Assembly: GCA_028282585.1 (NCBI GenBank)
Contig: JANQHR010000040.1
Coordinates: forward strand, 32,299 to 96,298
Length of the DNA: 64,000 bases
Direction of reading: 5' to 3'
Source: Bacteroidales bacterium
Lineage (GTDB): Bacteria; Bacteroidota; Bacteroidia; Bacteroidales; UBA12077
This document shows, one piece after another, positions 12,201 through 47,115 of this stretch (positions within the stretch are counted from its first letter, which is position 1; the number at the start of each line of letters is the position of its first letter). The notes beneath the pieces are model-generated. The model was not told where the DNA came from and made no database searches. It saw only the letters and a program-made list of their open reading frames with translations. A program made the translations under genes and the position numbers.

Positions 12201-12436
12201 GATATTAATGAAGCACTATCTTTTAAATCTTTTACATTTTCCTGCTCAAGCTCTCTTCTATAAAATTCGAGATAATTATCAAATAATCGCAAATACTCCT
12301 CAATAAGTTCGTTTTTGAGGTATCTTGCTAAATACGCTTCTACGATCTTTCTACCTTTGGCGGTAACTCCTTCCGGGTTCACATTTGCAACAATTGCAAA
12401 TAAGTGAATTAATGCATTTAATATTGATTCGCTCAT
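9287..12436 (-). CDS. ABCG/White-like ABC transporter (NBD followed by TMD) with an N-terminal TerB-like domain
   Basis: Walker A GGSGVGKST, signature ISGGQRKR, Walker B LFVDEPTSGL, H-loop IHQPS and C-terminal ABC2-type TM helices. The helical N-terminus (ILNALIHLFAIVA...) is TerB-like. Confidence 0.85.
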   Translation of the reverse strand: MSESILNALIHLFAIVANVNPEGVTAKGRKIVEAYLARYLKNELIEEYLRLFDNYLEFYRRELEQENVKDLKDSASLISFQIANVCSQIKKGLLRDERVIVFLELLEFVYEDHLITEQEFEFLKAVAKSFSLSESEFTNFRSFIFEGDPDKLDNDKVLVIDNQVREWSDNLAWLMKKKKSQEEEPYKHLFRENLYGKIVVFYIQSIQAFIFRYFGELNLYIEGQKIRYGRTYFLNKGAIIKGPNIESIYYYDIASKFILTSEETQITFEGKDVEFYFRNSKNGIQKFNFFEQSGQMIAIMGGSGVGKSTLLNLLCGKLKPTKGRIKINGHSVHLHSEGLTGLIGYVPQDDMLFEELTVFQNLYYNARLCFSDFTEQQLVEKVNSVMIDTDLYDARDLQVGNPLKKIISGGQRKRLNIALELMREPMLLFVDEPTSGLSSMDSMTIMNLLKEQAHKGKLVIANIHQPSSDIFKLFDKLWILDKGGYPIYQGNPVDAVVYFKTVTSLVNAAESECACCGNINPDQILQIIEEREINEYGKTIRKRKTQSETWYYRYLENIEKKIEPKQIETILPDSDFKIPNFVRQFQVFSMRNILSKLTNKQYLLINLLEAPLLALLLGYFTKYITPNGYVFGENKNLPVFLFMAVVVAIFLGLTVSAEEIIKDRKILERESFLNLSWFSYINSKIVILFTISAIQTFLYTLIGNTILEIHGMLIPFWLILFSAACMGNLIGLNISSGLDSVIAIYILIPLILVPKLLLGGAMIHFDDLHKGFTNKTYVPFIGNLMTTRWAYEAMMVEQFKNNEFEKIFYEDEKIISNADYKTSFLIPELQNKLNLCMRRKDSGLDSNALVRDLKIIRNELDIISLTEEGFSFQYNHLLNYNNFNENVMEQAYQALVRLDNLLSEKERDANDRKSAKYQQMVAELGQDGFVNFKQKYYNKKLADIVLNRNEINKVYQTRKRLVQKKDPVFMEPTSNFGRAHLYAPIKIINNIKVDTLWYNFILLWVLSGLLYLALLFDLLRRGLKYLQSLNFRERYLNRKRSKMQAGSGL

Positions 12437-12480
12437 TAATTTCTATTTGGAACAAAATTTAAGAAATAATCTGAAAAATA

Positions 12481-12511
12481 AAAAAAGCTCATGCATTAAA
12501 ACACATGAGCT
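12481..12511 (-). terminator. Intrinsic terminator after the lipoprotein gene
   Basis: Stem AGCTCATG/CATGAGCT followed by a U-tract on the minus strand. Confidence 0.65.
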
Positions 12512-12533
12512 GTTGATTATTTAAATAAATTAT

Positions 12534-13379
12534 TTAAAGAATAATCTTTTCTCTTAGTGCATTTGTTTGTTCAATTATGCTATTTAACTGTGCTTCAGTG
12601 ATACCTGTTTCATCTATACTATCAAATACTTCTTTGATAGGATTAAGGTCAGCTAATAATGTTTTAATTGACTCATGTTCTTTGTGTTCTTCCAACATTT
12701 TAACCAGTTTATCTAGCGAAGATTTTTGATGTAAAATAACTTTTACTAAATCAGGATTATGGTAAACTGTTTCAGAAATATTGCAAGAAATATACATAGC
12801 CTCGATCCATGTACCTGCCAATACAAGAAGCGATAAATCTTCTTTATTATTTCTTACCAGGTATTCATAAGTATCGTAAAAAGAGCCAGTAATTAAATCA
12901 ACTAAAACATCTTTGTTATCAATATTTTCTTCAACCTCATCGATAAAACTTATTGAAAATGCTCCTGTAATTCCAAGTTCAACAACTAAGTTCTCAAGAG
13001 CTTCCATATAAGTCATGATTTCCTGCCTCATATTATAAGTACTTGCATAACTTAAATCTGCACTATAAACACCTAAATTAATTGCCTGGTCCTTATCAGT
13101 AAAATATTTATCTATACTCTCGGTTTTATTTGTAATACCTATGATATAACTGGCTTCTATATCGTTAATCATTTCAGTTATTTCAAAAGCCGTAGGTAAT
13201 GGATATACTATCTCTCTCACATTTTCTTCGAATTCTTCTTTATCAATTTTTGACTCTGATAAAGATTCACTTGAAGTATCTTCTTTCTTACCTCCCGTAC
13301 AGTTAGCAAGAGACATCAACAATACTACTGATAATAATACTATTACTGATTTTTTGATGAAAAATTTTAATGTTTTCAT
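12534..13379 (-). CDS. Hypothetical alpha-helical lipoprotein
   Basis: Signal peptide with lipobox LANC; conserved-looking AINLGVYSADLSYA and GTWIEAMY segments. Confidence 0.75.
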   Translation of the reverse strand: MKTLKFFIKKSVIVLLSVVLLMSLANCTGGKKEDTSSESLSESKIDKEEFEENVREIVYPLPTAFEITEMINDIEASYIIGITNKTESIDKYFTDKDQAINLGVYSADLSYASTYNMRQEIMTYMEALENLVVELGITGAFSISFIDEVEENIDNKDVLVDLITGSFYDTYEYLVRNNKEDLSLLVLAGTWIEAMYISCNISETVYHNPDLVKVILHQKSSLDKLVKMLEEHKEHESIKTLLADLNPIKEVFDSIDETGITEAQLNSIIEQTNALREKIIL

Positions 13380-13484
13380 TGATCCTTATTTTTTAATTCT
13401 TTTTCTTTTATTTACTTTCCCGAAAAAAGTGGTTTATTTAACGCCTGAAATTTACAGTTTTTTTGTTTATTATCAATTCTAAAA

Positions 13485-14405
13485 TCAGAATAATTTTCTA
13501 TATCCAAAGCCCCAAAGCTCTATTCGTTTAGCAATATATCCAAAAATTAGGGTTGAAAAAAAAGTAAAAGACCCATAAACCACTGATACCATAGCCATCT
13601 CATAATTATTTAAAAGACTTTCTGCTATATAAATTCCCACAATACTGTTTTTTAATCCCACCTCAATACTTATCGTAAAGTTATTTTTTCCACCCAGCCT
13701 AAGGTATTTGGAAATTAAATAAACAATAAGCATTGAAACAAAATTTAATAGTAAGGCCCAAGGTGCAATGTATAAAAAATCGTTGAATCCATTTTCAGAA
13801 CCATTATCATCGAAGAATATCATTACAAAAAATACAGAAAATAGAATTAATGGCAGAATAAATCTTAAAGGTTTCTGAGCCTTAATTGCAAATTGAAAAA
13901 AGTATTGTCTTATAAACATTCCAAAAAGGGTGGGTAAAATAATTGTAAGAAGAATATTTAATATTGTATTTAAAACATCTAAATGTATTGTTTTAGCTTC
14001 GCCTAAAAATATTTCTAATCCTAGTTTAACTACTAAGGGTAAACTAACAAGTATAATTAAACTATTTAATGCTGTTAATGAAATTGAAAGAGCAAGATTG
14101 CCTTTCAACATGTGAGTAATAACATTTGTAGCTGAACCTCCTGCACATGCTGTAATAAGAATAAATCCGACCTTGATATATGGGTTTAAATTTGTAAATC
14201 CAAATAAAAGAAAAGCAACAAGTGGGAGAATAAATACCTGGCTAATAATCCCAGTCAGAACTGGCTTTGGATAACGCAAGATATTTCTGAAATCTCCTCT
14301 CTCCAGAGATAATCCCATTCCCATCATAATAATTGAAAGGGATAGGGGTAACAGGTATGTTGAAAAAAAAGACTGCATTTCTACGAAATTAATTAAGAAA
14401 CGCAT
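13485..14405 (-). CDS. Bile acid:sodium symporter (BASS) family transporter
   Basis: IMMGMGLSL, GGSATN, GNLALSISLT and EVGLKN motifs; about 9 TM helices. Confidence 0.9.
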   Translation of the reverse strand: MRFLINFVEMQSFFSTYLLPLSLSIIMMGMGLSLERGDFRNILRYPKPVLTGIISQVFILPLVAFLLFGFTNLNPYIKVGFILITACAGGSATNVITHMLKGNLALSISLTALNSLIILVSLPLVVKLGLEIFLGEAKTIHLDVLNTILNILLTIILPTLFGMFIRQYFFQFAIKAQKPLRFILPLILFSVFFVMIFFDDNGSENGFNDFLYIAPWALLLNFVSMLIVYLISKYLRLGGKNNFTISIEVGLKNSIVGIYIAESLLNNYEMAMVSVVYGSFTFFSTLIFGYIAKRIELWGFGYRKLF

Positions 14406-36434: not shown

Positions 36435-37181
36435 ATGAAATATTTTTTTATTATTCCCTTGATTTTATTATCTGCAAGTATTTTTAGTCAAACTGACTCT
36501 CTAAACCTTATAATTAATAAATATATTGATGCAATAGGAGGAAAAGATAATCTGGACAATATCAACACAGTTTATATTAAAAGAAAATTAATTCACGAAG
36601 AAAATAACACTTCTCGTTTGAACTATAGCTATCAGAAAAAACCAAATTATAGAATCTTCGGGAACTTAACTGCTCACAGGTTTACAACAACAGATGGAAC
36701 AGATTCGTGGAAAGCAGAATTTGACTCCACCGATAATGTCTATAAATGGTCAAAGCTTACGGAAAAATACTCAAATGCATTAATAATAAATGGAAATTTT
36801 TATTGGTTTTTAGGGGTATTTGTTATGGGCCCCAATGACAAAATGAGTTTGGAATACATCGGTACAAGGTTAATTAACGCAATTAAGACAAACGTTATTA
36901 AAGTAAAATGGTTTGATGGTTCAAGTTGGGAATACTATTTAGATACTAAAACCAATTTAATATACCAGTTAAAACCAACTGAAACCTCTACTATAAGATT
37001 TTTAGATTATAAAAAAGAACAAAATATACTTATTGCTCACAAAACTATTGGTAAAGGAGAAGGGCCTAATGGTCCATACGAACATATAAATATAATCCTA
37101 GAAATCGAATTCAATATTCCGTTAAAGGAAGGAATATTTACTCCTTCAAACAACAAAATCTTAAGAATTCCTGTGTTGTGA
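36435..37181 (+). CDS. Exported LolA-like fold hypothetical protein
   Basis: Signal peptide and IINKYIDAIGG, YYLDTKTNL, FLDYK pattern. Confidence 0.6.
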   Translation: MKYFFIIPLILLSASIFSQTDSLNLIINKYIDAIGGKDNLDNINTVYIKRKLIHEENNTSRLNYSYQKKPNYRIFGNLTAHRFTTTDGTDSWKAEFDSTDNVYKWSKLTEKYSNALIINGNFYWFLGVFVMGPNDKMSLEYIGTRLINAIKTNVIKVKWFDGSSWEYYLDTKTNLIYQLKPTETSTIRFLDYKKEQNILIAHKTIGKGEGPNGPYEHINIILEIEFNIPLKEGIFTPSNNKILRIPVL

Positions 37182-37239
37182 TATTACATGATAGTAATTT
37201 TCTCAATGCATTTAGTTATTTTGGTATAAAATAACTAAA

Positions 37240-37494
37240 TTAATCTAAGTGTGGCTTTTCTTCTTTTTGTTTTTCATCAATATAATGATCGATCCGGGAA
37301 AGATCCGTCATAATTTCAATTTTATCAATTTTGTCTGATAAAACCGAATAAAAAACTTCCACAAAAAAATCATCTATTGAATAAAGGTTCAATAGTTGGT
37401 TACCTTTTTTAACCTGAGTTAAATGTTTACCCTTACTAATTAGAAGCATCCCTTGCTCTGCAAGGGACATTTCACTAAACTCCTCCCTTGTCAT
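37240..37494 (-). CDS. Small hypothetical protein (84 aa)
   Basis: Clean ORF with the EF..MSL.EQ...LYSIDDFFVEVFY pattern seen in small Bacteroidota proteins. Confidence 0.7.
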   Translation of the reverse strand: MTREEFSEMSLAEQGMLLISKGKHLTQVKKGNQLLNLYSIDDFFVEVFYSVLSDKIDKIEIMTDLSRIDHYIDEKQKEEKPHLD

Positions 37495-37597
37495 ATATTA
37501 AAACACATTAATTATCGTATCGTATAAACTAAAACAAAAAAATAACGGTAATGTTTTAACTGTATATTATAATAATATGAACTCATTAAGATTTTTC

Positions 37598-37870
37598 TTA
37601 ATCAAGAAACTTCTTTGTTTTCAATGGTATTCCCTCCAGTAAAGCAATAGTCTTGTAAGCTTCTTCAGCACTATCTCCACAAACTAACTTTTCCGGTTTA
37701 AATCCTGTGCAAACCTTGGGTCGTTTTGGTGAATCAAAGATCTTACAACTTAAATCTTCTTTTAACTGAACACAAGGAACCCCTGCCGGCTTACCGTTTG
37801 GCATACCAGGGATTGAAGAAGATATAGATGGATATATGCAACATGCTGCACAACCTGAGCGACATTTCAT
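37598..37870 (-). CDS. YkgJ-family cysteine cluster protein
   Basis: CRSGCAACC, GKPAGVPCVQL, CKIF and RPKVC. Confidence 0.9.
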   Translation of the reverse strand: MKCRSGCAACCIYPSISSSIPGMPNGKPAGVPCVQLKEDLSCKIFDSPKRPKVCTGFKPEKLVCGDSAEEAYKTIALLEGIPLKTKKFLD

Positions 37871-37988
37871 TTTCAAAATTTTTTACAATATTAAAAAAGT
37901 ATTATGAATCCTTAATACTTATTAGTTTGAATTGTTTATAACTTTTTGTAATTTGCATAGTAACAGGCAACAACAAATGAAATAACTC

Positions 37989-39047
37989 ATGGAAAATTTA
38001 GGTGCAATTATTAAAAATGAACTTTCGTTACAAGCTGGAGAGTTAGCTGAAAAAATAGTTGAACTTCAATACAATCGCCAACCAGATTTCTGGAACAAAT
38101 ATGGAAAAAGAGGCAAACAACTTAGTCTACGTGATGCTGCTTATCACTTACCTTTTTTAGGCGAATCTATTGAAATCGGGGATAAAACTATTTTTACAAA
38201 TTACGTGAAATGGGTTAAAAAACTTTTCCGGGGTTTAAAATTCCCTGATGAAGTAATGATTGAAACCTTAAGATGCACGAAAGAAATTATAGAAAAAGAG
38301 TTTCCAAAAGAACAATCCGATTTGGTAGCTGAATACATTGAAGCAGGTCTGGAACAAATGAAAATGCCTTTAGAGGAATCTAAATCTTATCTCAATGTTC
38401 TTGATCCTCTGGGCGAACTCGCTATGGATTTTAATAAAGCCCTTCTTGATGGCGATAGGAAAACTGCAAGCAGCCTAATTTTAGACGCTGTAGAAAAAGG
38501 AACTCCTATTGAGGATATATACATGCATGTTTTCCAAAAGTCGCAATACGAAGTAGGACGCTTATGGTTAAATAATAAAATAACTGTTGCCAAAGAACAT
38601 TTCTGTTCCGCGGCAACTCAACAAATTATGAGCCAACTTTACCCCTATATATTTGCAAGAGAACGCATTGGACGTAATATGGTTGCAGCAAGTATAGGTG
38701 GAGAATTACACGAAATAGGTATAAGGATGGTAGCCGACTTTTTCGAAATGAAGGGTTGGGATACATATTATCTTGGTGCAAACACTCCAACTGATTCTAT
38801 ACTTTATTCAATCGAAGAAAACAATGCTGACTTGGTTGGATTATCCATTGCAATTCCTTATCAGATCGGACTACTTAAAAATACCATTGAACGCATACGT
38901 GAAAATATGAACGGAAGCCTTAAAATCCTGATCGGTGGATATGCGTTGCATGGTATAGGACAAAACTGGCAAGAGTTTAAAGCAGATGGTTATGCTGAAA
39001 ACGCCCAAAAGGCAGTAATACTAGCAAATACTTTAATGGATAGTTAA
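37989..39047 (+). CDS. Phycobiliprotein/globin-like domain fused to a CarH-type cobalamin-binding domain (putative photoreceptor)
   Basis: W193-x9-E203-H204 (GRLWLNNKITVAKEH) and E239-x-H241-xxG (GELHEIG), plus YLGANTP. The N-terminal SLRDAAYHL..L...I..GD resembles the phycobiliprotein CLRDxxYYLR....GD segment. Confidence 0.82.
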   Translation: MENLGAIIKNELSLQAGELAEKIVELQYNRQPDFWNKYGKRGKQLSLRDAAYHLPFLGESIEIGDKTIFTNYVKWVKKLFRGLKFPDEVMIETLRCTKEIIEKEFPKEQSDLVAEYIEAGLEQMKMPLEESKSYLNVLDPLGELAMDFNKALLDGDRKTASSLILDAVEKGTPIEDIYMHVFQKSQYEVGRLWLNNKITVAKEHFCSAATQQIMSQLYPYIFARERIGRNMVAASIGGELHEIGIRMVADFFEMKGWDTYYLGANTPTDSILYSIEENNADLVGLSIAIPYQIGLLKNTIERIRENMNGSLKILIGGYALHGIGQNWQEFKADGYAENAQKAVILANTLMDS

Positions 39048-39052
39048 AATTT

Positions 39053-40246
39053 ATGGCAAAAGTTAGCGGATGCGCGTTCCTGTGCGATGAAAGTGGAGTT
39101 ATTCAACAGGTTTTAAGAGACGATTTTGGTTTTTCTGAAAATGGTTGCCAGGGTAAATTATTTACTTCAATTATAGATCAGCATTCACGAAGTAAATCAT
39201 TAAATATGATTTTGGAAACTAAAAACAAAAACTTGGCTTTCGATTACAGGTTAAATGTTTTTATTCAAGATCAGCTAAAATCTCTCTATTTTATGGGAGT
39301 GTATTTGGGTAAACAAATATTAATAATTGGTGCAGATAATCATAACGAAGCCATTGAGTTTACCAATCAATTACAACAGATCAACAATGAACAATCAAAC
39401 CAGATTCGGATACTTCTAAAAAAACAAAACGAAAAAATTACAACTCAGGAAAAAGAAAACGAAGCAATATTTGATGAACTCAGTCGTGTAAACAACGAAT
39501 TAATCAATTTACAACGAGAATTGAACCGTAAAAACGCAGAATTAGAAAGGTTAAACGATTTAAAAAACAGGTTTTTAGGAATGGCTGCTCATGATCTCCG
39601 AAATCCTTTAAGCAATATTAACGCCATATCTGATTTTTTACAGAAAAAAAGCGACAATTTTGACGAAAGACAAAATCGGTTTGTAAACCATATAAAGGAA
39701 TTAAGCTCATTTATGCTGAATTTAGTAAATGAACTATTGGACATCTCTGCTATCGAATCCGGCAATGTAAAGATTAATAGTACTCCGACCAACTTAGTAC
39801 TTTTAATTGAAACTAATATCAATTTGAATAAAGAACTTGCGAACAAAAAAAATATTGAAATCCTATTCGAATCAAATGTTGATTCTTTAATATTGAAGAT
39901 CGATAATAATAAAATTGATCAGGTTTTAACTAATTTATTAACAAACGCAATTAAGTATTCAAATAACGATACAAAAATTTTTGTATCTTTAAAACGACAG
40001 GAAACAGAAGTACTAATTAATGTTCAGGATCAGGGACAGGGAATTGCAGAAGATGAGGTAGTTTCTTTATTTAAACCATTTCAAAAAACCAGTACGAAGA
40101 GTACTGCCGGGGAAAAAAGTACCGGATTAGGATTGTACATAGTTAAAAGAATTGTTGAGGCTCATCAAGGTCAAATAGAAGTAGAAAGCGAAGTTGGAAA
40201 AGGCTCAACATTTTATTTTAGTTTACCATTAAACTCAACAAGCTAA
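39053..40246 (+). CDS. Soluble sensor histidine kinase (PAS-like, coiled coil, HisKA, HATPase)
   Basis: H-box AHDLRNPL, N-box NLLTNAIKY, DQGQG and STGLGL; no TM helix. Confidence 0.93.
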   Translation: MAKVSGCAFLCDESGVIQQVLRDDFGFSENGCQGKLFTSIIDQHSRSKSLNMILETKNKNLAFDYRLNVFIQDQLKSLYFMGVYLGKQILIIGADNHNEAIEFTNQLQQINNEQSNQIRILLKKQNEKITTQEKENEAIFDELSRVNNELINLQRELNRKNAELERLNDLKNRFLGMAAHDLRNPLSNINAISDFLQKKSDNFDERQNRFVNHIKELSSFMLNLVNELLDISAIESGNVKINSTPTNLVLLIETNINLNKELANKKNIEILFESNVDSLILKIDNNKIDQVLTNLLTNAIKYSNNDTKIFVSLKRQETEVLINVQDQGQGIAEDEVVSLFKPFQKTSTKSTAGEKSTGLGLYIVKRIVEAHQGQIEVESEVGKGSTFYFSLPLNSTS

Positions 40247-40247
40247 T

Positions 40248-41021
40248 ATGAGCAAATCTATTCTGATAGTTGATGATGATCATACCAATATAGAAATTAT
40301 TTCCATAATCATTGAAGAAGATACAGATTATCATGTGGATTCAGTAGATACTGGAAAAGCTTGCCTGGAATATCTCAAGAAAAATAAACCCGATTTAATC
40401 TTGTTGGACGTTATGCTCCCAGATATACTAGGAACTGACGTTTGTGTCCAAATAAAAAACAACCCCAAATTTGTTGATGTAATTATTATTTTATTATCAG
40501 GGATTAAAGTTACGAAAGACGACTACATTTTTGGTTTAGAAATAGGTGCTGATGATTATTTAAGCAGACCTTTTGAAGCTCGTGAATTAATCGCACGAAT
40601 TAAATCAATTATAAGGTTAAAAGAATCGATTGTAAAGCTTCGAGAAACGACCTTTGAACCATTCGACCGGCGAAGTACAGAGCAAACCGCTAAAATCTAT
40701 GAACAGGAACTTATAAAAATTGCTTACCATAAAGAATTCAAAAATATAACTAAAGAATATACAGCAATTTTAAATAAATCAATTCAACAAAGGATGTTTA
40801 AAAATAATGAAAATGACCCTGATCCAATTAAGAAATTAGCTGCCGAATTAAGTTTTCTTAAGGCAGGTGCAAGAGATATAATTGACATTCATAAAGAAGC
40901 ACTAAAATATATGTTAAATGAAGACTCAGCCAAACGAGCGTTTTTAATTAAAGAAGAATCAAGAATCGTTTTGCTTGAAATAATGGGTTATTTACTTAAT
41001 TTTTATCGAAACAAAATATAA
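40248..41021 (+). CDS. Response regulator with a KaiA-like C-terminal domain (KaiA3-like)
   Basis: REC domain with D9/D10 and phosphoacceptor D54. The C-terminal IIDIHKEAL...ESRIVLLEIMGYLLNFYR parallels the KaiA consensus IIEIHMELI...DYRLTLIDILAHLCExYR. It lies directly upstream of kaiB. Confidence 0.78.
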   Translation: MSKSILIVDDDHTNIEIISIIIEEDTDYHVDSVDTGKACLEYLKKNKPDLILLDVMLPDILGTDVCVQIKNNPKFVDVIIILLSGIKVTKDDYIFGLEIGADDYLSRPFEARELIARIKSIIRLKESIVKLRETTFEPFDRRSTEQTAKIYEQELIKIAYHKEFKNITKEYTAILNKSIQQRMFKNNENDPDPIKKLAAELSFLKAGARDIIDIHKEALKYMLNEDSAKRAFLIKEESRIVLLEIMGYLLNFYRNKI

Positions 41022-41108
41022 TTTGTATTTGTAATATTTTATATAATATCAATAAATAAAATACTCTAAAAAAGGTGAAGTTAAAATTAAGAAAATCATA
41101 TCTAAATT

Positions 41109-41387
41109 ATGACTAAATATTTGTTAAAACTCTACATCACAGGAAAAACAGCGCGGTCTGACCGTGCGATAAAAGCGTTGAAGGAGATCTGCGCTAAAGA
41201 GTTGGGAAATAAGTACGAGTTAAATGTAATTGACGTATTAGAATCTCCACAAGAGGCTGAAGACGATAAAGTTTTAGCCACACCGACGCTAATAAAATCT
41301 CTACCTCCCCCTATTAAACGTATAATTGGAGACCTATCGGATAGAGAAAAGGTGCTAATTGGGCTAGACCTAGTTAAAAATGTATAA
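41109..41387 (+). CDS. kaiB: Circadian clock protein KaiB
   Basis: [53 protein letters not shown]. Confidence 0.97.
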
Positions 41388-41397
41388 AATTATAACT

Positions 41398-42915
41398 ATG
41401 AATAAAAAAATAAACCTGATAGAAAAACTACAAACCGGAATTCCTGGATTTGACCACGTTTCAAAAGGTGGTTTGCCAACAAACAGAACAACCTTATTAT
41501 CTGGTTCTGCCGGTAGCGCAAAAACTGTTTTTGCGGCACAGTTTTTAGCTGAAGGAATTTCCCAGTTCAATCAGAATGGTGTTTTTATAACATTTGAGGA
41601 ACCTGTTGAAGATATTAGGCGAAATATGTTAAGTTTTGGCTGGCCAATTGAACAATGGGAAAAAGAAAATAAATGGGCCTTTGTTGATGCTTCCCCACAA
41701 CCAAATGAAGCACATATAATTACTGGCGATTATGATTTAGGAGCCCTTCTAGCACGAATTGAAAATGCAGTAAAAAAGACCGGAGCGAAAAGGTTATCCA
41801 TGGACTCTATTGGTGCCATCTTTACGCAATTTACAGATACCTTTATTGTTCGGCGCGAACTTTTTAGAATTGCTTATGCTTTAAAGAAAATAAATGTAAC
41901 ATCATTAATGACAGCTGAAAGAATAGATGAATACGGTGAAATTGCTCGATTTGGTGTTGAAGAATTCGTTGCAGACAATGTAATTATTTTAAGAAATATT
42001 CTGGAAGATGAAAAGAGAAGAAGAACAATTGAAATACTTAAATACAGGGGCACAAACCATCAAAAAGGAGAATACCCGTTTTCCGTTTCACCCGAATCCG
42101 GCTTAATAATAATCCCACTTTCAGCTATTGAGTTAAAACAAAAATCATCCAATATCAGAATTACTTCGGGAAGCCAGGAATTAGACGATATGTGTAATGG
42201 TGGATTTTTCCGTGATTCAATCATCTTGGTTTCCGGCGCTACCGGAACAGGAAAAACTTTAATGGCAACGGAATTTATGGAAGGAGGAACTTCAAAAGGA
42301 GAACGTTCGTTGCTATTTGCATTTGAAGAAAGTCGAGAACAATTATTTAGAAATGCTTCTGGCTGGGGTATCGATTTTGAAAAGGCCGAAAAAGATGGAT
42401 TACTCAAGGTTGTTTGTGAATATCCTGAAGTTACTGGTTTGGAAGACCACCTGATTCGAATGAAAGAAGTAATTGAAAAATACAACCCTCAACGCGTAGC
42501 AGTTGACAGCCTTTCGGCTCTGGAGAGAGTTTCAACATTAAAAAGCTTCCGAGAGTTTATAATTGGTTTAACTTCCTTCATTAAGCATAAAGAAACTGCC
42601 GGATTATTTACCTCAACAACTACATCGCTTATGGGTGGCTCTTCAATTACGGAAGGACATATTTCGACTATTACCGATTCAATTATACTTCTTCGTTATG
42701 TTGAGGCTTATGGCGAAATGCGAAGGGGTTTAACCGTATTAAAAATGCGTGGATCGAAACATAATAAGGATATTAGAGAACTAACAATTGATGAAAATGG
42801 TATGCATATCGGTAAACCATTTCGGGATGTTTCAGGAATAATATCCGGAAATCCTCATTTAGTTTTTAGGGGAGAAATTGATCGTTTAGATGATTTATTT
42901 AATAACGATGCATAA
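41398..42915 (+). CDS. kaiC: Circadian clock protein KaiC (double RecA-like domain)
   Basis: CI P-loop GSAGSAKT, TFEE and ARFGVEEFVADNV; CII GATGTGKT, AFEESREQL, phosphosite HISTITD, KMRGS and A-loop IISGNP. The ATG at 41398 is preferred to the overlapping 41380. Confidence 0.97.
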   Translation: MNKKINLIEKLQTGIPGFDHVSKGGLPTNRTTLLSGSAGSAKTVFAAQFLAEGISQFNQNGVFITFEEPVEDIRRNMLSFGWPIEQWEKENKWAFVDASPQPNEAHIITGDYDLGALLARIENAVKKTGAKRLSMDSIGAIFTQFTDTFIVRRELFRIAYALKKINVTSLMTAERIDEYGEIARFGVEEFVADNVIILRNILEDEKRRRTIEILKYRGTNHQKGEYPFSVSPESGLIIIPLSAIELKQKSSNIRITSGSQELDDMCNGGFFRDSIILVSGATGTGKTLMATEFMEGGTSKGERSLLFAFEESREQLFRNASGWGIDFEKAEKDGLLKVVCEYPEVTGLEDHLIRMKEVIEKYNPQRVAVDSLSALERVSTLKSFREFIIGLTSFIKHKETAGLFTSTTTSLMGGSSITEGHISTITDSIILLRYVEAYGEMRRGLTVLKMRGSKHNKDIRELTIDENGMHIGKPFRDVSGIISGNPHLVFRGEIDRLDDLFNNDA

Positions 42916-42917
42916 TT

Positions 42918-44771
42918 ATGGAAGAAAAAGCAAAAGATAAAATATTACTTGTTGATGATGAACCATTCAACTTAGAAATCTACTCTGAAATGTTTTCCGA
43001 TGTAGGTTATGAAGTTTTTACCGCTTCTAATTCAGGTGAAACTTTCGAAATATTAAAAAAGAATGAACCCGATCTTTTGCTTTTGGATATAGTACTCCAT
43101 AATGAATCAGGACTGGATATTTTAGAAAGAATTAAAACTGACAAGTTGCACCCTTTTATGTTTATTGTAATGATAACGGGTGCATTTACTTCATCACAAC
43201 AACAAGCTGCTGGTTTAGAACAAGGTGCAGATGGTTACATAATACGGCCAATAGATAATCGGGAATTAATTGCGCGAGTTGAAGCATTTATGAGGCACAA
43301 ACGCACTTTAGACTCTCTTCGTAGAAGCGAAAGCCGTTTCAGAAAAATAATTGCTCGTAATCCGGATGCTATTTTAGTGGTTGGTACCGATGGAAAAATA
43401 TCATTTGCCAATCCTTCAGCAGAAGATATGTTTAAATTAACAATTGATGAATTACTTAGTAGAGTATTTGGCTACCCGATTATTCAAGGTGAACATACAG
43501 AAATTAATATTGTTCGACAAGACGAAGAAAAACGTATTGGCGAAATGCGAACCATTGATATTGACTGGAATGATAAGGAAACATTTCTTACATCAATACG
43601 AGATATAACCCATCATAAACAAATTGAAGAAGAACTAAAAAAAGCTTTGTTAAAAGCTGAAGAAAGCGATAAACTAAAATCAGCATTCCTTGCTAACATG
43701 AGCCATGAGATTCGAACACCTATGAATGGTGTACTTGGTTTTACGAGGTTTCTTAAAAAACCAAATCTGCCCATTGAAAAGCAGCGAAAATATATATCAA
43801 TTATTGAACAATCTGGCTTAAGAATGCTTAATCTTATTAATGATATTATTGATATATCAAAAATTGAATCCGGTAACATGGAAGTTAATTACGGTAATAT
43901 AAACATACATGAAATGTTTGCTTCCTTATTTAGCTTCTTTGAGCCACAAGCAAAGAAAAATAAGAATAAATTATTGTACGTAACAAGTCTGCCAGACCAC
44001 AAAGCTTATGTTTTTACAGATAATGAAAAGATTACTGCGATATTTACAAATCTGATAAAAAACGCAATAAAGTATACCTCTAATGGTAAAATTGAATTTG
44101 GTTACGAGTTAAAAGAAAATATGTTTGAGTTTTACGTGAAGGATACAGGGATAGGAATTCCACAGGATCGTTTAGATGCAATATTTGAGCGTTTTGTTCA
44201 GGCAGACCTAAGAGTAGCTCAACCTTATGAGGGGGCAGGATTGGGATTATCCATTGCGAAAGCTTATGTAGAAATGCTAAGGGGAAAAATACGAGTAGAA
44301 TCAGAAGAAAATAAAGGATCAACGTTCTATTTTACTATACCAATTAAAGGTAAAAAAGTTGATAAAAAAGTTGTTACGCAAGAAAAAGAAATTGATATCA
44401 ATGAAAAATTAAGGGAAATAACGGTGCTTGTTGCCGATGACGATGAAACTGCAAATGTTTATTTAGAAGAGGTACTAGAAGGTAAATGCAAAAGAATATT
44501 ACACGCGCGTAACGGCAAACAAGCTGTGGACATAATTCAAAAAGAAAAAGATATTAACCTTATTTTGATGGATATAAAAATGCCGGTTATGGATGGTTAT
44601 ACAGCTACCCGAATGATAAAACAGTATAATGAAAATGTTATCATAATTGCCCAAACTGCCTATGCAATGTCAGGTGATAAAGAAAAAGCTATTAAAGCGG
44701 GATGCAATGGATATATCACAAAACCGATTAATCAAAACGAGCTTTTATTAATCATGAATCAACTACTTTAG
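42918..44771 (+). CDS. Soluble hybrid histidine kinase (REC-PAS-HisKA-HATPase-REC)
   Basis: N-terminal REC (LLLDIVL), PAS (NPDAILVV...FANPSA), H-box MSHEIRTPMNG, G boxes and a C-terminal REC (LMDIKMP, ITKP). Starts 2 nt after the kaiC stop. Confidence 0.93.
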   Translation: MEEKAKDKILLVDDEPFNLEIYSEMFSDVGYEVFTASNSGETFEILKKNEPDLLLLDIVLHNESGLDILERIKTDKLHPFMFIVMITGAFTSSQQQAAGLEQGADGYIIRPIDNRELIARVEAFMRHKRTLDSLRRSESRFRKIIARNPDAILVVGTDGKISFANPSAEDMFKLTIDELLSRVFGYPIIQGEHTEINIVRQDEEKRIGEMRTIDIDWNDKETFLTSIRDITHHKQIEEELKKALLKAEESDKLKSAFLANMSHEIRTPMNGVLGFTRFLKKPNLPIEKQRKYISIIEQSGLRMLNLINDIIDISKIESGNMEVNYGNINIHEMFASLFSFFEPQAKKNKNKLLYVTSLPDHKAYVFTDNEKITAIFTNLIKNAIKYTSNGKIEFGYELKENMFEFYVKDTGIGIPQDRLDAIFERFVQADLRVAQPYEGAGLGLSIAKAYVEMLRGKIRVESEENKGSTFYFTIPIKGKKVDKKVVTQEKEIDINEKLREITVLVADDDETANVYLEEVLEGKCKRILHARNGKQAVDIIQKEKDINLILMDIKMPVMDGYTATRMIKQYNENVIIIAQTAYAMSGDKEKAIKAGCNGYITKPINQNELLLIMNQLL

Positions 44772-44818
44772 ATTGGATTTTTTTGTTATATTTGGTTCCC
44801 ATTTGAATCGAACGTATA

Positions 44819-45319
44819 GTGAAACCAGTTTTGAAAATATTTCTCTTTTTCTTTTTAGTATCTATTGTTGTTTCATGTAATTTTTTAACTAATTCTTCAG
44901 CCAAAATTAATAGTAGTTCGCTTTTAGAAGAAGTTAGTTGGATAATTGGCAATTGGGAAAACAATATTCCGGAAGGTAAAACCATTGAAAGTTGGCAAAA
45001 ACTTAATGATTCGGTTTTAATAGGAAAAAGTATTTTTATTAAAGAAAAAGATTCACTTTTACTTGAAAATATTTTAATAGTTCAGCGCCAAGAAGGTCTT
45101 TATTATATTCCTACTGTTATAAATCAAAATGAAGGAAATTCGGTTGAATTTAAACTTTCCTATAAAAGCGGAAGAATGTTGGTTTTTGAAAATCCGCAAC
45201 ATGATTTCCCACAAAAAATAAGCTATAGCAAAATTTCAAACGATTCTATTTTAGCAGAAATATCTGGTATTTCAAATGGTAAAGAAAAATCGGTTAAATT
45301 TCCAATGACCAGAAAATAA
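44819..45319 (+). CDS. DUF6265-like lipoprotein
   Basis: Lipobox VVSC; WIIGNW, ESW and FENPQHDFPQKISY. Confidence 0.7.
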   Translation: MKPVLKIFLFFFLVSIVVSCNFLTNSSAKINSSSLLEEVSWIIGNWENNIPEGKTIESWQKLNDSVLIGKSIFIKEKDSLLLENILIVQRQEGLYYIPTVINQNEGNSVEFKLSYKSGRMLVFENPQHDFPQKISYSKISNDSILAEISGISNGKEKSVKFPMTRK

Positions 45320-45320
45320 T

Positions 45321-46013
45321 ATGTTTTTTGTCGAAAAACTTATTCACGGCAGGTTAATAAAACGATACAAACGTTTTTTGGCTGATGTCCAATTGGATGA
45401 TGGAAAAATCGTAACAGCACACTGTACCAATTCCGGGTCTATGAAAAGCTGTTTGGAAAATGATGCGGAAGTTTACTTATCTCCTGTAAATGATTCAAAA
45501 CGTAAAACAAAATTTACCTGGGAAATGATCAAAATTAATAATAACTGGATTGGAATAAATACAGGAAACCCAAACAAGCTGGCCTTTGAAGCTGTTTTAA
45601 ATAACCAAATCGAAAAATTAAAAGGATATTCTGAAGTTAAAAGAGAAGTTAAATTTGGCGATAGCCGATTTGATATAATGGCTAAAAATGAGACTGAAAT
45701 CTGTTTTATAGAAGTTAAAAATGTTACCCTAAAGGTAGGAGATTATGCTCTTTTCCCCGATGCAATTACAAGCCGTGGAAAAAAGCACTTGGAAACCTTG
45801 ATAAAGGTTAAAGAAAATGGTATGCGAGCAGTGATGTTGTACATAATTCAAAGAACGGATGTTTCAATTTTTGCTCCTGCTAATGAAATTGATCCCGAAT
45901 ATGCTAAAACCTTAAAAAAAGCATATAATAATGGCATTGAGATAATTCCAATGCAAGCAAAAGTAACACCTGAAAAAATTGATTTAGTCAAAGAATTACC
46001 TTTTGAAATTTAA
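45321..46013 (+). CDS. sfsA: Sugar fermentation stimulation protein A (nuclease)
   Basis: RYKRFLADV, AHCTNSGSM, SRFD, EVKNVTL and FPDAITSRGKKHL. Confidence 0.96.
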   Translation: MFFVEKLIHGRLIKRYKRFLADVQLDDGKIVTAHCTNSGSMKSCLENDAEVYLSPVNDSKRKTKFTWEMIKINNNWIGINTGNPNKLAFEAVLNNQIEKLKGYSEVKREVKFGDSRFDIMAKNETEICFIEVKNVTLKVGDYALFPDAITSRGKKHLETLIKVKENGMRAVMLYIIQRTDVSIFAPANEIDPEYAKTLKKAYNNGIEIIPMQAKVTPEKIDLVKELPFEI

Positions 46014-46014
46014 A

Positions 46015-47115
46015 ATGAGATTTATAAAATACGTACCAATTTCATTCATTCTTATTATCTTTTCTTGTTCTAATGAAACAATTAATCCGGATTTTATAAG
46101 CGATGGAGAATATGATGGAAAATACTTTCCTACAAATGAATGGAGATACTGTAACCCTGAAGAAGTTGGCGTAAACATAAATGCTCTGTTAGAGGCACAC
46201 AAATATGTATCAAATTCTGATTTTGGTACAAATGGTTATATGATTATCAAAGATGGTTATATAGTTGCCGAAGATTATTTTAACGGTTTAACTTTAGAAG
46301 TAAAGCATGCAAGTTATTCAATTGCTAAAAGTATTACTTCTGCAATTATAGGAATTGCAATCGATCAAGGCTATATTGAAAGTGTAGAAGATAAGTTTTC
46401 CGATTATTTTACCGAACTCAACAATGGTAATACTCAACAGTGGAAAAAGGATCTTAAAGTATCGCATGTTCTTACTATGACATCAGGAATTGATTGGGCA
46501 GAAGAAGGTATTTTTTCAAATGACATTATTCAAATGTCTCGTTCCGAAGATTATCTTGAATACGTAATGAATAAGCCCCTGAATAATAAACCCGGAACAG
46601 ATTGGTCATACAATAGCGGAGAATCGATGTATTTGTCCGGATTAATTAATTTAACAACTGGAAAAAATATGCTTCAGTTTGCAGAAGAAAATTTACTAAA
46701 TCCGATAGGGATATGTAATATAAACTGGATTGCAGATTCAAAAAACCATACAGTTGCCGGATGGGGAATTAATGCTACCATGCATGATTTTGCCAGGTTC
46801 GGATATTTATTTTTAAACAATGGAAACTGGGATGGGTCGCAAATAATTTCAAAAGAATGGATTAAAGAGTCAACATCACCTTTTAGTAATGATTATCCAT
46901 TTTATGGCTACTTATGGTGGATAGGAGAAGATGCTTTTTTTGAAAGTACAATTGATTTGCCAGATGATTTATATATGGCCATTGGTGCATTTGGTCAATA
47001 TCTAATAATTATTCCCTCTGAAAACTTAATTATTGCAAGATTAGGACAGGATCTATATTCTCGGAATAGTTGGAAACCTGAAGAATTTATTCGTTTAGTT
47101 CTAAAAGCTGTTTGA
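46015..47115 (+). CDS. Serine hydrolase, beta-lactamase/AmpC-like lipoprotein
   Basis: SxxK (SIAKS), LTMTSG, YNS and YGYLWW; lipobox IFSC. ATG at 46015 preferred. Confidence 0.85.
   Translation: MRFIKYVPISFILIIFSCSNETINPDFISDGEYDGKYFPTNEWRYCNPEEVGVNINALLEAHKYVSNSDFGTNGYMIIKDGYIVAEDYFNGLTLEVKHASYSIAKSITSAIIGIAIDQGYIESVEDKFSDYFTELNNGNTQQWKKDLKVSHVLTMTSGIDWAEEGIFSNDIIQMSRSEDYLEYVMNKPLNNKPGTDWSYNSGESMYLSGLINLTTGKNMLQFAEENLLNPIGICNINWIADSKNHTVAGWGINATMHDFARFGYLFLNNGNWDGSQIISKEWIKESTSPFSNDYPFYGYLWWIGEDAFFESTIDLPDDLYMAIGAFGQYLIIIPSENLIIARLGQDLYSRNSWKPEEFIRLVLKAV

Follow-up and report, generated by a model that had tools for sequence, protein, structure and literature searches.

A globin-first photoglobin-B12 sensor with a conserved histidine kinase neighbour in a Bacteroidales bacterium

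Gene and domain architecture

The window analysed here is a stretch of 64,000 nucleotides from a Bacteroidales bacterium (GenBank assembly GCA_028282585.1, contig JANQHR010000040.1, positions 32,299 to 96,298 of the forward strand). It carries a gene whose product joins a globin related to phycobiliproteins to a cobalamin-binding module of the CarH type, and this gene is followed by that of a histidine kinase and by kai genes. We consider it probable that the product is a stand-alone photoglobin-B12 (photocobilin) photoreceptor with reversed domain order, which is read by the kinase of its own operon and likely serves as light input to KaiBC. The gene and its sites are the following.

37989..39047, forward strand: photoglobin-B12 (photocobilin-class) sensor, 352 amino acids, ATG start (Pfam, phmmer, AlphaFold2 model, VIA-align); globin at residues 1-125, B12-binding_2 four-helix cap at residues 148-217, Rossmann B12-binding domain at residues 231-343
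38124..38135, forward strand: S46-L-R-D49, counterpart of the phycobiliprotein CxRD bilin site, with Ser for the ligating Cys and Asp49 retained
38565..38600, forward strand: W193-x9-E203-H204, the adenosyl-capping/light-state motif of CarH-type adenosylcobalamin (AdoCbl) photoreceptors, within WLNNKITVAKEH
38703..38720, forward strand: E239-x-H241-xx-G244 (ELHEIG), with H241 as the predicted lower axial cobalt ligand (base-off/His-on)

Three Pfam families score over their cut-offs in the sensor: Phycobilisome (PF00502) at residues 17-119 (26.3 bits, the curated cut-off being 22.2; profile positions 43-150 of 155), B12-binding_2 (PF02607) at residues 148-217 (E 4.1e-16) and B12-binding (PF02310) at residues 231-343 (E 5.7e-20). 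An earlier note, made from the sequence alone, had pointed to the W-x9-EH and ExHxxG motifs of this gene and to the lack of a DNA-binding domain. Both observations hold. In the open reading frame and its translation the W193 codon starts at 38565 and the H204 codon ends at 38600, the two motifs stand at the positions that the note had given, and Pfam lists neither a helix-turn-helix (HTH) nor another DNA-binding family for the sensor at E ≤ 0.01. Since both motifs lie inside the B12-binding_2 and B12-binding matches, they are not chance occurrences.

The cobalamin module

The sensor was modelled with AlphaFold2 from a 60-sequence alignment (mean predicted local distance difference test, pLDDT, 93.9; predicted template modelling score, pTM, 0.87). 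After six N-terminal helices and a linker come the four-helix cap and the Rossmann domain, and in this one confident model a CarH-type cobalamin module is predicted to pack against a phycobiliprotein-like globin. Among PDB sequences, phmmer finds the photocobilins 8J2X/8J2W (E 4e-19) and 8J2Y (1e-14), then CarH (about 3e-7), with corrinoid proteins scoring lower than the photocobilins; the W...EH of the sensor aligns to the W...EH of the photocobilin SasPcob. Photocobilin 8J2W is likewise the top Foldseek match of the model (E 1.9e-10, 206 columns). In a VIA-align search against 48,161 chains, residues 139-352 superimpose on 8j2w_B (Z 26.6, root-mean-square deviation (rmsd) 1.8, 208 residues aligned) and 8j2y_B (Z 26.4), other neighbours being 3ezx (Z 23.3), AerR 7te2 (Z 20.8) and the AppA SCHIC domain 4heh (Z 20.2). 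The light-responsive signature named in the available text of PMC11796333, GxxW, EH, GxxH and GxxxP, is complete in the translation as G190RLW193, E203H204, G238ELH241 and G263ANTP267.

Identity with CarH itself, a MerR-family repressor, was rejected: there is no HTH, and the NCBIfam CarH model attains 54.3 bits against a cut-off of 400, matching just residues 122-291. That the protein is instead a methyltransferase corrinoid carrier of the MtbC/MtgC kind, with incidental signalling neighbours, is scarcely credible. The NCBIfam MtbC, MtgC and pyl_corrinoid subfamily models do reach 51-54 bits, and the model does align to 3ezx with the Z value of 23.3 given above. Those bit scores, however, are far under the curated cut-offs of 215-370, the sensor has ExHxxG and W-x9-EH and not DxHxxG, the operon holds no methyltransferase gene, and a sensor kinase is the neighbour in 69 of 80 loci (those kept of 548 sensor-encoding stretches, in a scan with one genome per species).

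The globin half and the putative bilin site

When residues 1-130 were compared with PDB sequences by phmmer, all 41 matches at E ≤ 1 were phycobiliproteins or fluorescent proteins derived from them. In the top match (6kgx_VH, E 9.3e-6) Ser46 is aligned under the Cys of allophycocyanin LCLRD and Asp49 under its Asp, which bears out the reading that Ser replaces the bilin-ligating Cys (SLRD versus CLRD). Structure prediction of residues 1-125, proposed in the earlier note as a check, yields a globin/phycobiliprotein fold: residues 4-124 form six helices, and VIA-align superimposes the model on allophycocyanin 8or7_A with Z 17.1 and rmsd 2.0, 125 residues being aligned to residues 33-159. Heme globin sensors (Z 14.1, 13.6) come after the phycobiliproteins (Z 17.1, 15.1), and an RsbR-type globin (12.8) comes after both. 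From the VIA-align results, the N-terminal domain is a globin of the phycobiliprotein type that lacks the two helices with which true phycobiliproteins begin, and the helical domain of about 125 residues that had been compared with phycobiliproteins is thus supported by fold as well as by the Pfam score.

Two other identities of this domain were set aside. Ser46, at the place of the thioether Cys of CxRD, speaks against a light-harvesting phycobiliprotein, the Ser being invariant in 29 close homologs. A heme-binding globin-coupled sensor appears disfavoured by the lower Z values of the heme globins and by the phycobiliprotein type of every one of the 41 sequence matches.

According to the main text of Schneider 2021 (PMC8717448), photoglobins are phycocyanin-related non-heme globins whose N-terminal representative has C46, D49 and L80, often with Ser or Thr at the Cys position. 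In the sensor, Ser46 takes the place of the Cys, Asp49 is present and L79/F80 stand where photoglobins have the hydrophobic residue. In SasPcob the bilin is held by Asp270 and Trp296 (Zhang 2024, PMC10979010, main text), and the spacing of 26 residues between them is the same as that between D49 and W75 of the sensor. HMMER places D49 and W75 on these two residues, within a stretch of alignment that is itself below threshold.

Family, conservation and distribution

One word-indexed search with the sensor returned 2678 proteins at E ≤ 0.001. The best 120 of them are all 347-380 residues long and have both B12 domains, 49 with a precomputed PF00502 match; the few of these 120 that are named at all are called 'cobalamin-dependent protein' or bear corrinoid or MerR labels transferred in error. 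S46, R48, D49, H53, Y72, W75, W193, E203, H204 and H241 are invariant in the 29 close homologs, which are mostly from Bacteroidales. Across the 60 sequences, which come from several phyla and reach down to 41% identity, H53, Y72, W75, G190, W193, E203, H204, H241, G263 and P267 do not vary, and at least 90% have D49. The titles of the 80 loci include Bacteroidales, Desulfomonile/Syntrophaceae, Anaerolineae, Acidobacteriota, Verrucomicrobiota, Gemmatimonadaceae, Methanotrichaceae and Methanohalophilus.

Within the genus of the window organism, none of the 24 other species genomes holds a full-length copy of the sensor. Five of the same-genus genomes (loci L002-L006, genomes G020, G006, G017, G022 and G007) have an open reading frame of 218-232 residues with the B12 part and no globin, 34-39% identical to sensor residues 146-341. 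The kinase that follows it matches the kinase of the window from about residue 120-145 on, that is, from the coiled coil onward; its N-terminus is different and the N-domain is absent. This is a parallel B12-sensor/kinase pair in the genus.

The partner histidine kinase

39053..40246, forward strand: partner histidine kinase, 397 amino acids, beginning 5 nucleotides after the sensor stop; PAS-fold N-domain at residues 1-96, coiled-coil linker at about residues 97-165, HisKA at residues 171-237 (H-box HDLRNP), HATPase_c at residues 284-394

The first 165 residues of the kinase have no Pfam match, and the N-domain gave only chance-level matches in Pfam at E ≤ 10 and as a profile against PDB. Its model is well defined (pLDDT 76-95 over residues 1-100), and each of the 50 rows that VIA-align lists is a PAS or LOV domain, the best being 5y7y_B (Z 12.5, rmsd 1.9, 94 residues aligned); the best Foldseek match is 8px4_C (7.5e-6). 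VIA-align also matches the N-domain to PpsR (4hh2) and to the AppA-PpsR2 complex (4hh3). A conserved coiled coil (INNEQ..N..R ... LNNEL.NLQREL) follows the PAS domain.

A homolog of kinase residues 1-160 lies directly downstream of the sensor, on the same strand, in 69 of the 80 loci, whose titles span Bacteroidota, Desulfobacterota, Chloroflexota, Acidobacteriota, Verrucomicrobiota, Gemmatimonadota and one archaeon; in two of the remaining 11 the contig ends within 145 nucleotides of the sensor gene. Twenty-five of the 65 complete downstream reading frames were scanned with Pfam. Most consist of the N-domain with HisKA and HATPase, three add a REC domain and one gave no family. The outputs behind the N-domain vary: GAF-GGDEF in locus L084, PAS in L079 and HisKA_2 in L043. 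In L081 (775-2721), from a Thermoanaerobaculia metagenome-assembled genome, a single reading frame of 649 residues joins Phycobilisome, B12_2, B12, HisKA and HATPase and keeps just the second half of the PAS/linker region. The N-domain profile has one match in the genome of the window organism. It matched two of 40 relatives that have no full-length sensor, weakly in G021, and in G035, which is uninformative as the contig ends inside the gene.

On the strength of (i) the conserved adjacency, (ii) the varied outputs behind the N-domain, (iii) the one fusion and (iv) the joint absence of sensor and N-domain, we infer that the PAS domain of the kinase is the probable receiver of the sensor signal. 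The earlier proposal of signalling in trans to the adjacent kinase is strengthened by the partner in 69 of 80 loci and by the L081 fusion, whereas binding of the kinase is deduced from synteny and that single fusion; a predicted complex of the sensor with kinase residues 1-165 gave an ipSAE of 0.01 in both runs, a value that, without controls, weighs neither for nor against contact.

Within the first two strands of the PAS domain, Cys11 is kept in at least 90% and Gly15 in all of 51 sequences, and the two residues may belong to a site for a ligand, for redox chemistry or for contact. If they bind a ligand of their own, the kinase PAS might sense a separate signal through the near-invariant Cys11, and the sensor would act on the REC/KaiA-like protein described below, on KaiC or on an unlinked target. 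The predicted partners of SasPcob, which are STAS/SpoIIE-type proteins and not kinases according to the main text of PMC10979010, also fit such an arrangement. We regard it as improbable, for the sensor-kinase pair persists in the 71 loci that have no Kai genes, the two proteins are fused in L081, and 38 of the 40 relatives that lack the sensor gave no match to the PAS domain.

The Kai operon and its response regulator

40248..41021, forward strand: response regulator, 257 amino acids, beginning 1 nucleotide after the kinase stop; REC (PF00072) at residues 5-119 and an unnamed C-terminal domain at about residues 125-257
41109..41387, forward strand: KaiB, 92 amino acids (PF07689, E 2.1e-28)
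41380..42915, forward strand: double-domain KaiC, 511 amino acids, overlapping the KaiB gene; the only one found in the genome
42918..44771, forward strand: hybrid kinase REC-PAS-HisKA-HATPase-REC, 617 amino acids, conserved behind kaiC in related loci

The gene order in the window is sensor, PAS kinase, REC protein whose second domain may be KaiA-like, KaiB, KaiC and hybrid kinase. KaiB occurs in nine of the 80 loci, five of them from Bacteroidota (L027, L028, L049, L073, L089) and four from Chloroflexota (L071, L075, L077, L086), and KaiC in seven; two different gene orders exist, the Kai genes standing downstream of the sensor-kinase pair in most Kai loci and upstream of it in L071 and L077.

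The response regulator has its REC acceptor D54 within LILLDVMLPD. Its C-terminal domain is always C-terminal and just upstream of kaiB, as REC-X, REC-PAS-X or PAS-X (window, L028, L071, L073, L077, L086, L089), and is fused to KaiB in the protein P0333. The domain family comprises 1721 representative clusters, mostly labelled 'hypothetical'. Its top three Atlas clusters are KaiA-related (0.84, 0.82, 0.80) and serve as leads only. Of the first 100 family members, three match KaiA (PF07688) at E ≤ 0.01, with 0.0014 as the lowest value, and P0201 scores 15 bits over PF07688 profile positions 18-120 of 122; the domain of the window itself gave no KaiA match, and no other match above chance level, in Pfam or PDB sequence searches. 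These signals weakly suggest that the domain may have a KaiA/RsbU_N-like fold, which would make the regulator a KaiA3-type protein in Bacteroidota.

Receiver domains usually have a conserved Lys before Pro. Arg stands there in both the REC domain of the response regulator (DDYLSRPF) and that of the hybrid kinase (GYIIRPI); L071 and L086 also have Arg, and L073 has Lys.

KaiA3, a REC joined to a KaiA-like domain, is encoded upstream of kaiB3-kaiC3 in cyanobacteria and five other genera (Koebler 2024, PMC11372060, in its available text). The segment 40248-42915 of the window resembles this system in having a REC joined to a C-terminal domain directly upstream of kaiB-kaiC. It differs in that none of the five non-cyanobacterial genera given there is from Bacteroidota, and no photoreceptor-kinase pair is described upstream. 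The KaiA-likeness in the window is that of the weak signals listed above.

A full-text search of the available literature for a link between KaiC and a B12-binding or cobalamin photoreceptor found no paper on one. The name Kai is likewise absent from the main text of the photocobilin paper and from that of the photoglobin paper, the supplements and figures of which lie outside that coverage and may already show the subfamily or its neighbours. Sigma-70-type promoters predicted in 37000-46500 numbered 35 against a shuffle mean of 41.7, and terminators 8 against 5.1, figures that are uninformative for this organism; no RNA run is listed among the sequencing runs containing DNA of the locus, of which one has it in full and a second a share of 0.06. 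On the other side of the sensor gene, at 37598-37876 on the reverse strand, a divergent gene encodes a putative zinc/iron-chelating protein of the CxxCxxCC type (92 residues, PF03692), and a counterpart with 75% identity is found at the equivalent place in locus L021.

Proposed mechanism

In the model that we favour, the sensor in the dark would hold AdoCbl base-off/His-on at H241, with the adenosyl group capped by W193 and E203-H204. UV-to-green light would split the Co-C bond, H204 would become the upper ligand, and the quaternary structure would change as in CarH and SasPcob. Biliverdin, if available, might bind non-covalently in the globin pocket and widen the sensitivity to red light. As the sensor has no output domain, the light-induced change would be read in trans by the co-operonic kinase through its N-terminal PAS domain and coiled-coil linker, and in the genome of the window be handed over to a REC(KaiA-like)-KaiB-KaiC timer. 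The position of the Kai genes behind the kinase makes light input to the KaiBC timer the likely physiological output. These steps differ in their footing: photolysis of AdoCbl at H241, W193 and E203-H204 is predicted from strong homology, read-out by the PAS kinase is suggested by comparative genomics, and the hand-over to the Kai timer might be proposed from gene order and weak similarity.

Several observations weigh against this reading, the first group of which concerns the bilin. The genome of the window organism, 98.35% complete, has PduO-type and CobA-type adenosyltransferases for AdoCbl supply, a point in favour of the model. It has no match to heme oxygenase (PF01126), nor is heme oxygenase found in any of 14 Bacteroidota-titled carrier genomes; altogether 7 of 46 carrier genomes have it. 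Anaerobic heme breakdown was considered as another source of a linear tetrapyrrole and rejected, as no HutW/ChuW match in the genome is above the family cut-off. Without heme oxygenase a bilin source is not evident in the organism, and bilin there may be either imported or absent.

The situation is different elsewhere in the subfamily. A heme oxygenase gene lies 81-839 nucleotides upstream of the sensor gene in nine of the 80 loci, all with Desulfobacterota-type titles (L038, L041, L042, L046, L048, L051, L057, L058, L066); it is divergent from the sensor in seven and co-directional in two, and one of these adjacent genes was confirmed by Pfam with 33.6 bits. This adjacency links the subfamily to bilin synthesis in one lineage. 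Canonical heme oxygenase requires O2, and Desulfobacterota-type organisms are usually seen as anaerobes. In the photocobilin and photoglobin papers, as far as their main texts go, a bilin supply gene is a supporting and not a defining feature. As the gene stands beside the sensor in one lineage and is missing from another, nature provides photocobilins that have a bilin supply to compare with others that have none.

The lack of heme oxygenase in the genome and in all 14 Bacteroidota-titled carriers also suits a sensor of light through AdoCbl only, in which a bilin-free globin shields the corrin edge, docks the kinase, or both, like the diguanylate-cyclase photocobilin AbDPcob; shielding of the corrin edge by the photocobilin globin is described in the main text of PMC10979010. 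We see this as a possible but rather unlikely alternative. In AbPcob the Asp is replaced by His, to which its weak biliverdin binding is ascribed (PMC10979010, main text), and this change is absent here, D49, R48, H53, Y72 and W75 being invariant in the 29 close homologs. Besides, heme oxygenase adjoins the sensor in the nine loci just described, and an extracellular source could supply biliverdin.

A second group of adverse points concerns light itself. Many carriers are titled as strict anaerobes of sediments and digesters, where light may be scarce, and the NCBIfam models score alike for CarH (54.3 bits) and methyl-corrinoid proteins (54.0, 52.8), all far under their cut-offs. A sensor working in the dark, which reports cobalamin availability or redox state to the kinase and keeps the CarH-like motifs just for adenosyl binding, would agree with methanogen, syntroph and sulfate-reducer titles among the carriers and with AerR 7te2 and AppA SCHIC 4heh among the structural neighbours. 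B12 domains of the AerR/AppA SCHIC type also integrate non-light signals. Such a sensor is nonetheless quite unlikely. The light-responsive signature is complete and does not vary between phyla, the nearest solved relatives are proven photoreceptors, and what is fused to the cobalamin module or encoded beside it is a globin of the bilin type and heme oxygenase; the single sequencing run containing the DNA in full is labelled coral metagenome, though it may be the source sample.

The third group concerns the Kai genes. KaiB is missing from 71 of the 80 loci, and the nearest relative among the genome contigs, locus L021 (76% identity), has sensor and kinase and no response regulator, KaiB or KaiC. 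The Kai link is thus optional. In L021 the order is CxxC protein, sensor, kinase, SfsA and beta-lactamase family (12275-14055 compared with window 44819-47115), while the window carries response regulator, KaiB, KaiC, hybrid kinase and DUF6265 between kinase and SfsA, a clean insertion or deletion of the whole Kai cassette. Taken with the Kai loci, this comparison indicates that the Kai and sensor-kinase cassettes are separable modules that have been joined repeatedly. Their recurrent joining in REC(KaiA-like)-KaiB-KaiC operons suggests a route by which light information could reach non-cyanobacterial Kai timers.

A bolder form of the photoreceptor model would have a portable light-input cassette wired to a KaiA3-like/KaiB/KaiC timer in the window and in eight or more further loci from Bacteroidota and Chloroflexota. 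Light, by way of B12 and perhaps bilin, would set the kinase, which would phosphorylate the REC domain of the KaiA-like protein, and this protein would set KaiC phosphorylation. We put it forward as a doubtful, speculative extension. If true, it would be the first phosphorelay from a photoreceptor to Kai, and a case of a bacterium that is not phototrophic with a clock or hourglass entrained by light.

Comparison with known systems

The photoglobin signature (S46, D49, L79/F80), the four light-responsive motifs and SxRD make the sensor a globin-first member of a published class: it belongs to the described photoglobin-B12/photocobilin class and is not new in kind. The earlier suggestion of a photocobilin-like sensor of B12 and bilin is upheld as to the photocobilin identity, by phmmer (E 4e-19), VIA-align (Z 26.6) and the photoglobin signature; the bilin half is putative for this organism, in whose genome no heme oxygenase was found. 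The novelty that it implied was overstated, given that the family, the globin-first order and the association with two-component systems are all in the main texts of PMC8717448 and PMC10979010.

The photoglobin family, as presented in the main text of PMC8717448, includes fusions to B12-binding_2 and B12-binding 'either before or after', and operons with sensor kinases, REC proteins and occasionally heme oxygenase. The sensor resembles it in having a phycocyanin-related globin without the two N-terminal phycobiliprotein helices and in S46, D49 and L79/F80, to be compared with C/S/T46, D49 and L80. Actinobacteria, firmicutes, proteobacteria, chloroflexi and archaea are the taxa of that text, in which neither Bacteroidetes nor KaiB/KaiC are named. 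The available text of PMC10151467 places photoglobins with the bilin-binding BBAG-2 globins and gives CxQD for the photoglobins; the subfamily of the window has SxRD, the phycobiliprotein-like form with Arg.

The photocobilins SasPcob and AbDPcob bind AdoCbl and biliverdin, their Co-C bond being cleaved by green light, or by red light via biliverdin, with shifts in quaternary structure (Zhang 2024, PMC10979010, main text). Like the sensor, the solved SasPcob/AbPcob structures (8J2W/8J2X/8J2Y) have a CarH-type B12 module with W-x9-EH and E/DxH, and SasPcob, as its published main text has it, shares a fused phycobiliprotein-like globin that lacks the ligating Cys and keeps the Asp, and is a stand-alone protein without output domain that is thought to work via protein-protein contacts. 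The same main text groups predicted photocobilins by an N- or C-terminal AdoCbl domain, and here lies a difference: the domain order is opposite, the globin being N-terminal in the sensor of the window and C-terminal in both solved photocobilins. The B12 halves are about 25% identical, and the globin halves align only below threshold. The partner differs as well, a PAS histidine kinase here as against STAS/SpoIIE proteins or a fused diguanylate cyclase in the main-text account of the photocobilins, and heme oxygenase was not found in the genome of the sensor.

CarH of Thermus thermophilus (5C8D) and Myxococcus xanthus shares with the sensor the four-helix cap and Rossmann domain, W-x9-EH and the His lower ligand; unlike the sensor it has a MerR HTH and DNA-binding output, and the sensor has an additional globin. 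In AerR-CrtJ and in AppA(SCHIC)-PpsR a B12-type protein without output domain works in trans on a PAS-domain partner, much as is proposed for the sensor and its kinase. These pairs differ from that of the window in that the partner is a transcription factor instead of a histidine kinase, and no globin is present. Seen against these systems, the sensor adds a well-conserved globin-first subfamily to a class in which only two members, both globin-last, are characterised, and its dedicated PAS-kinase partner provides a concrete output for assay.

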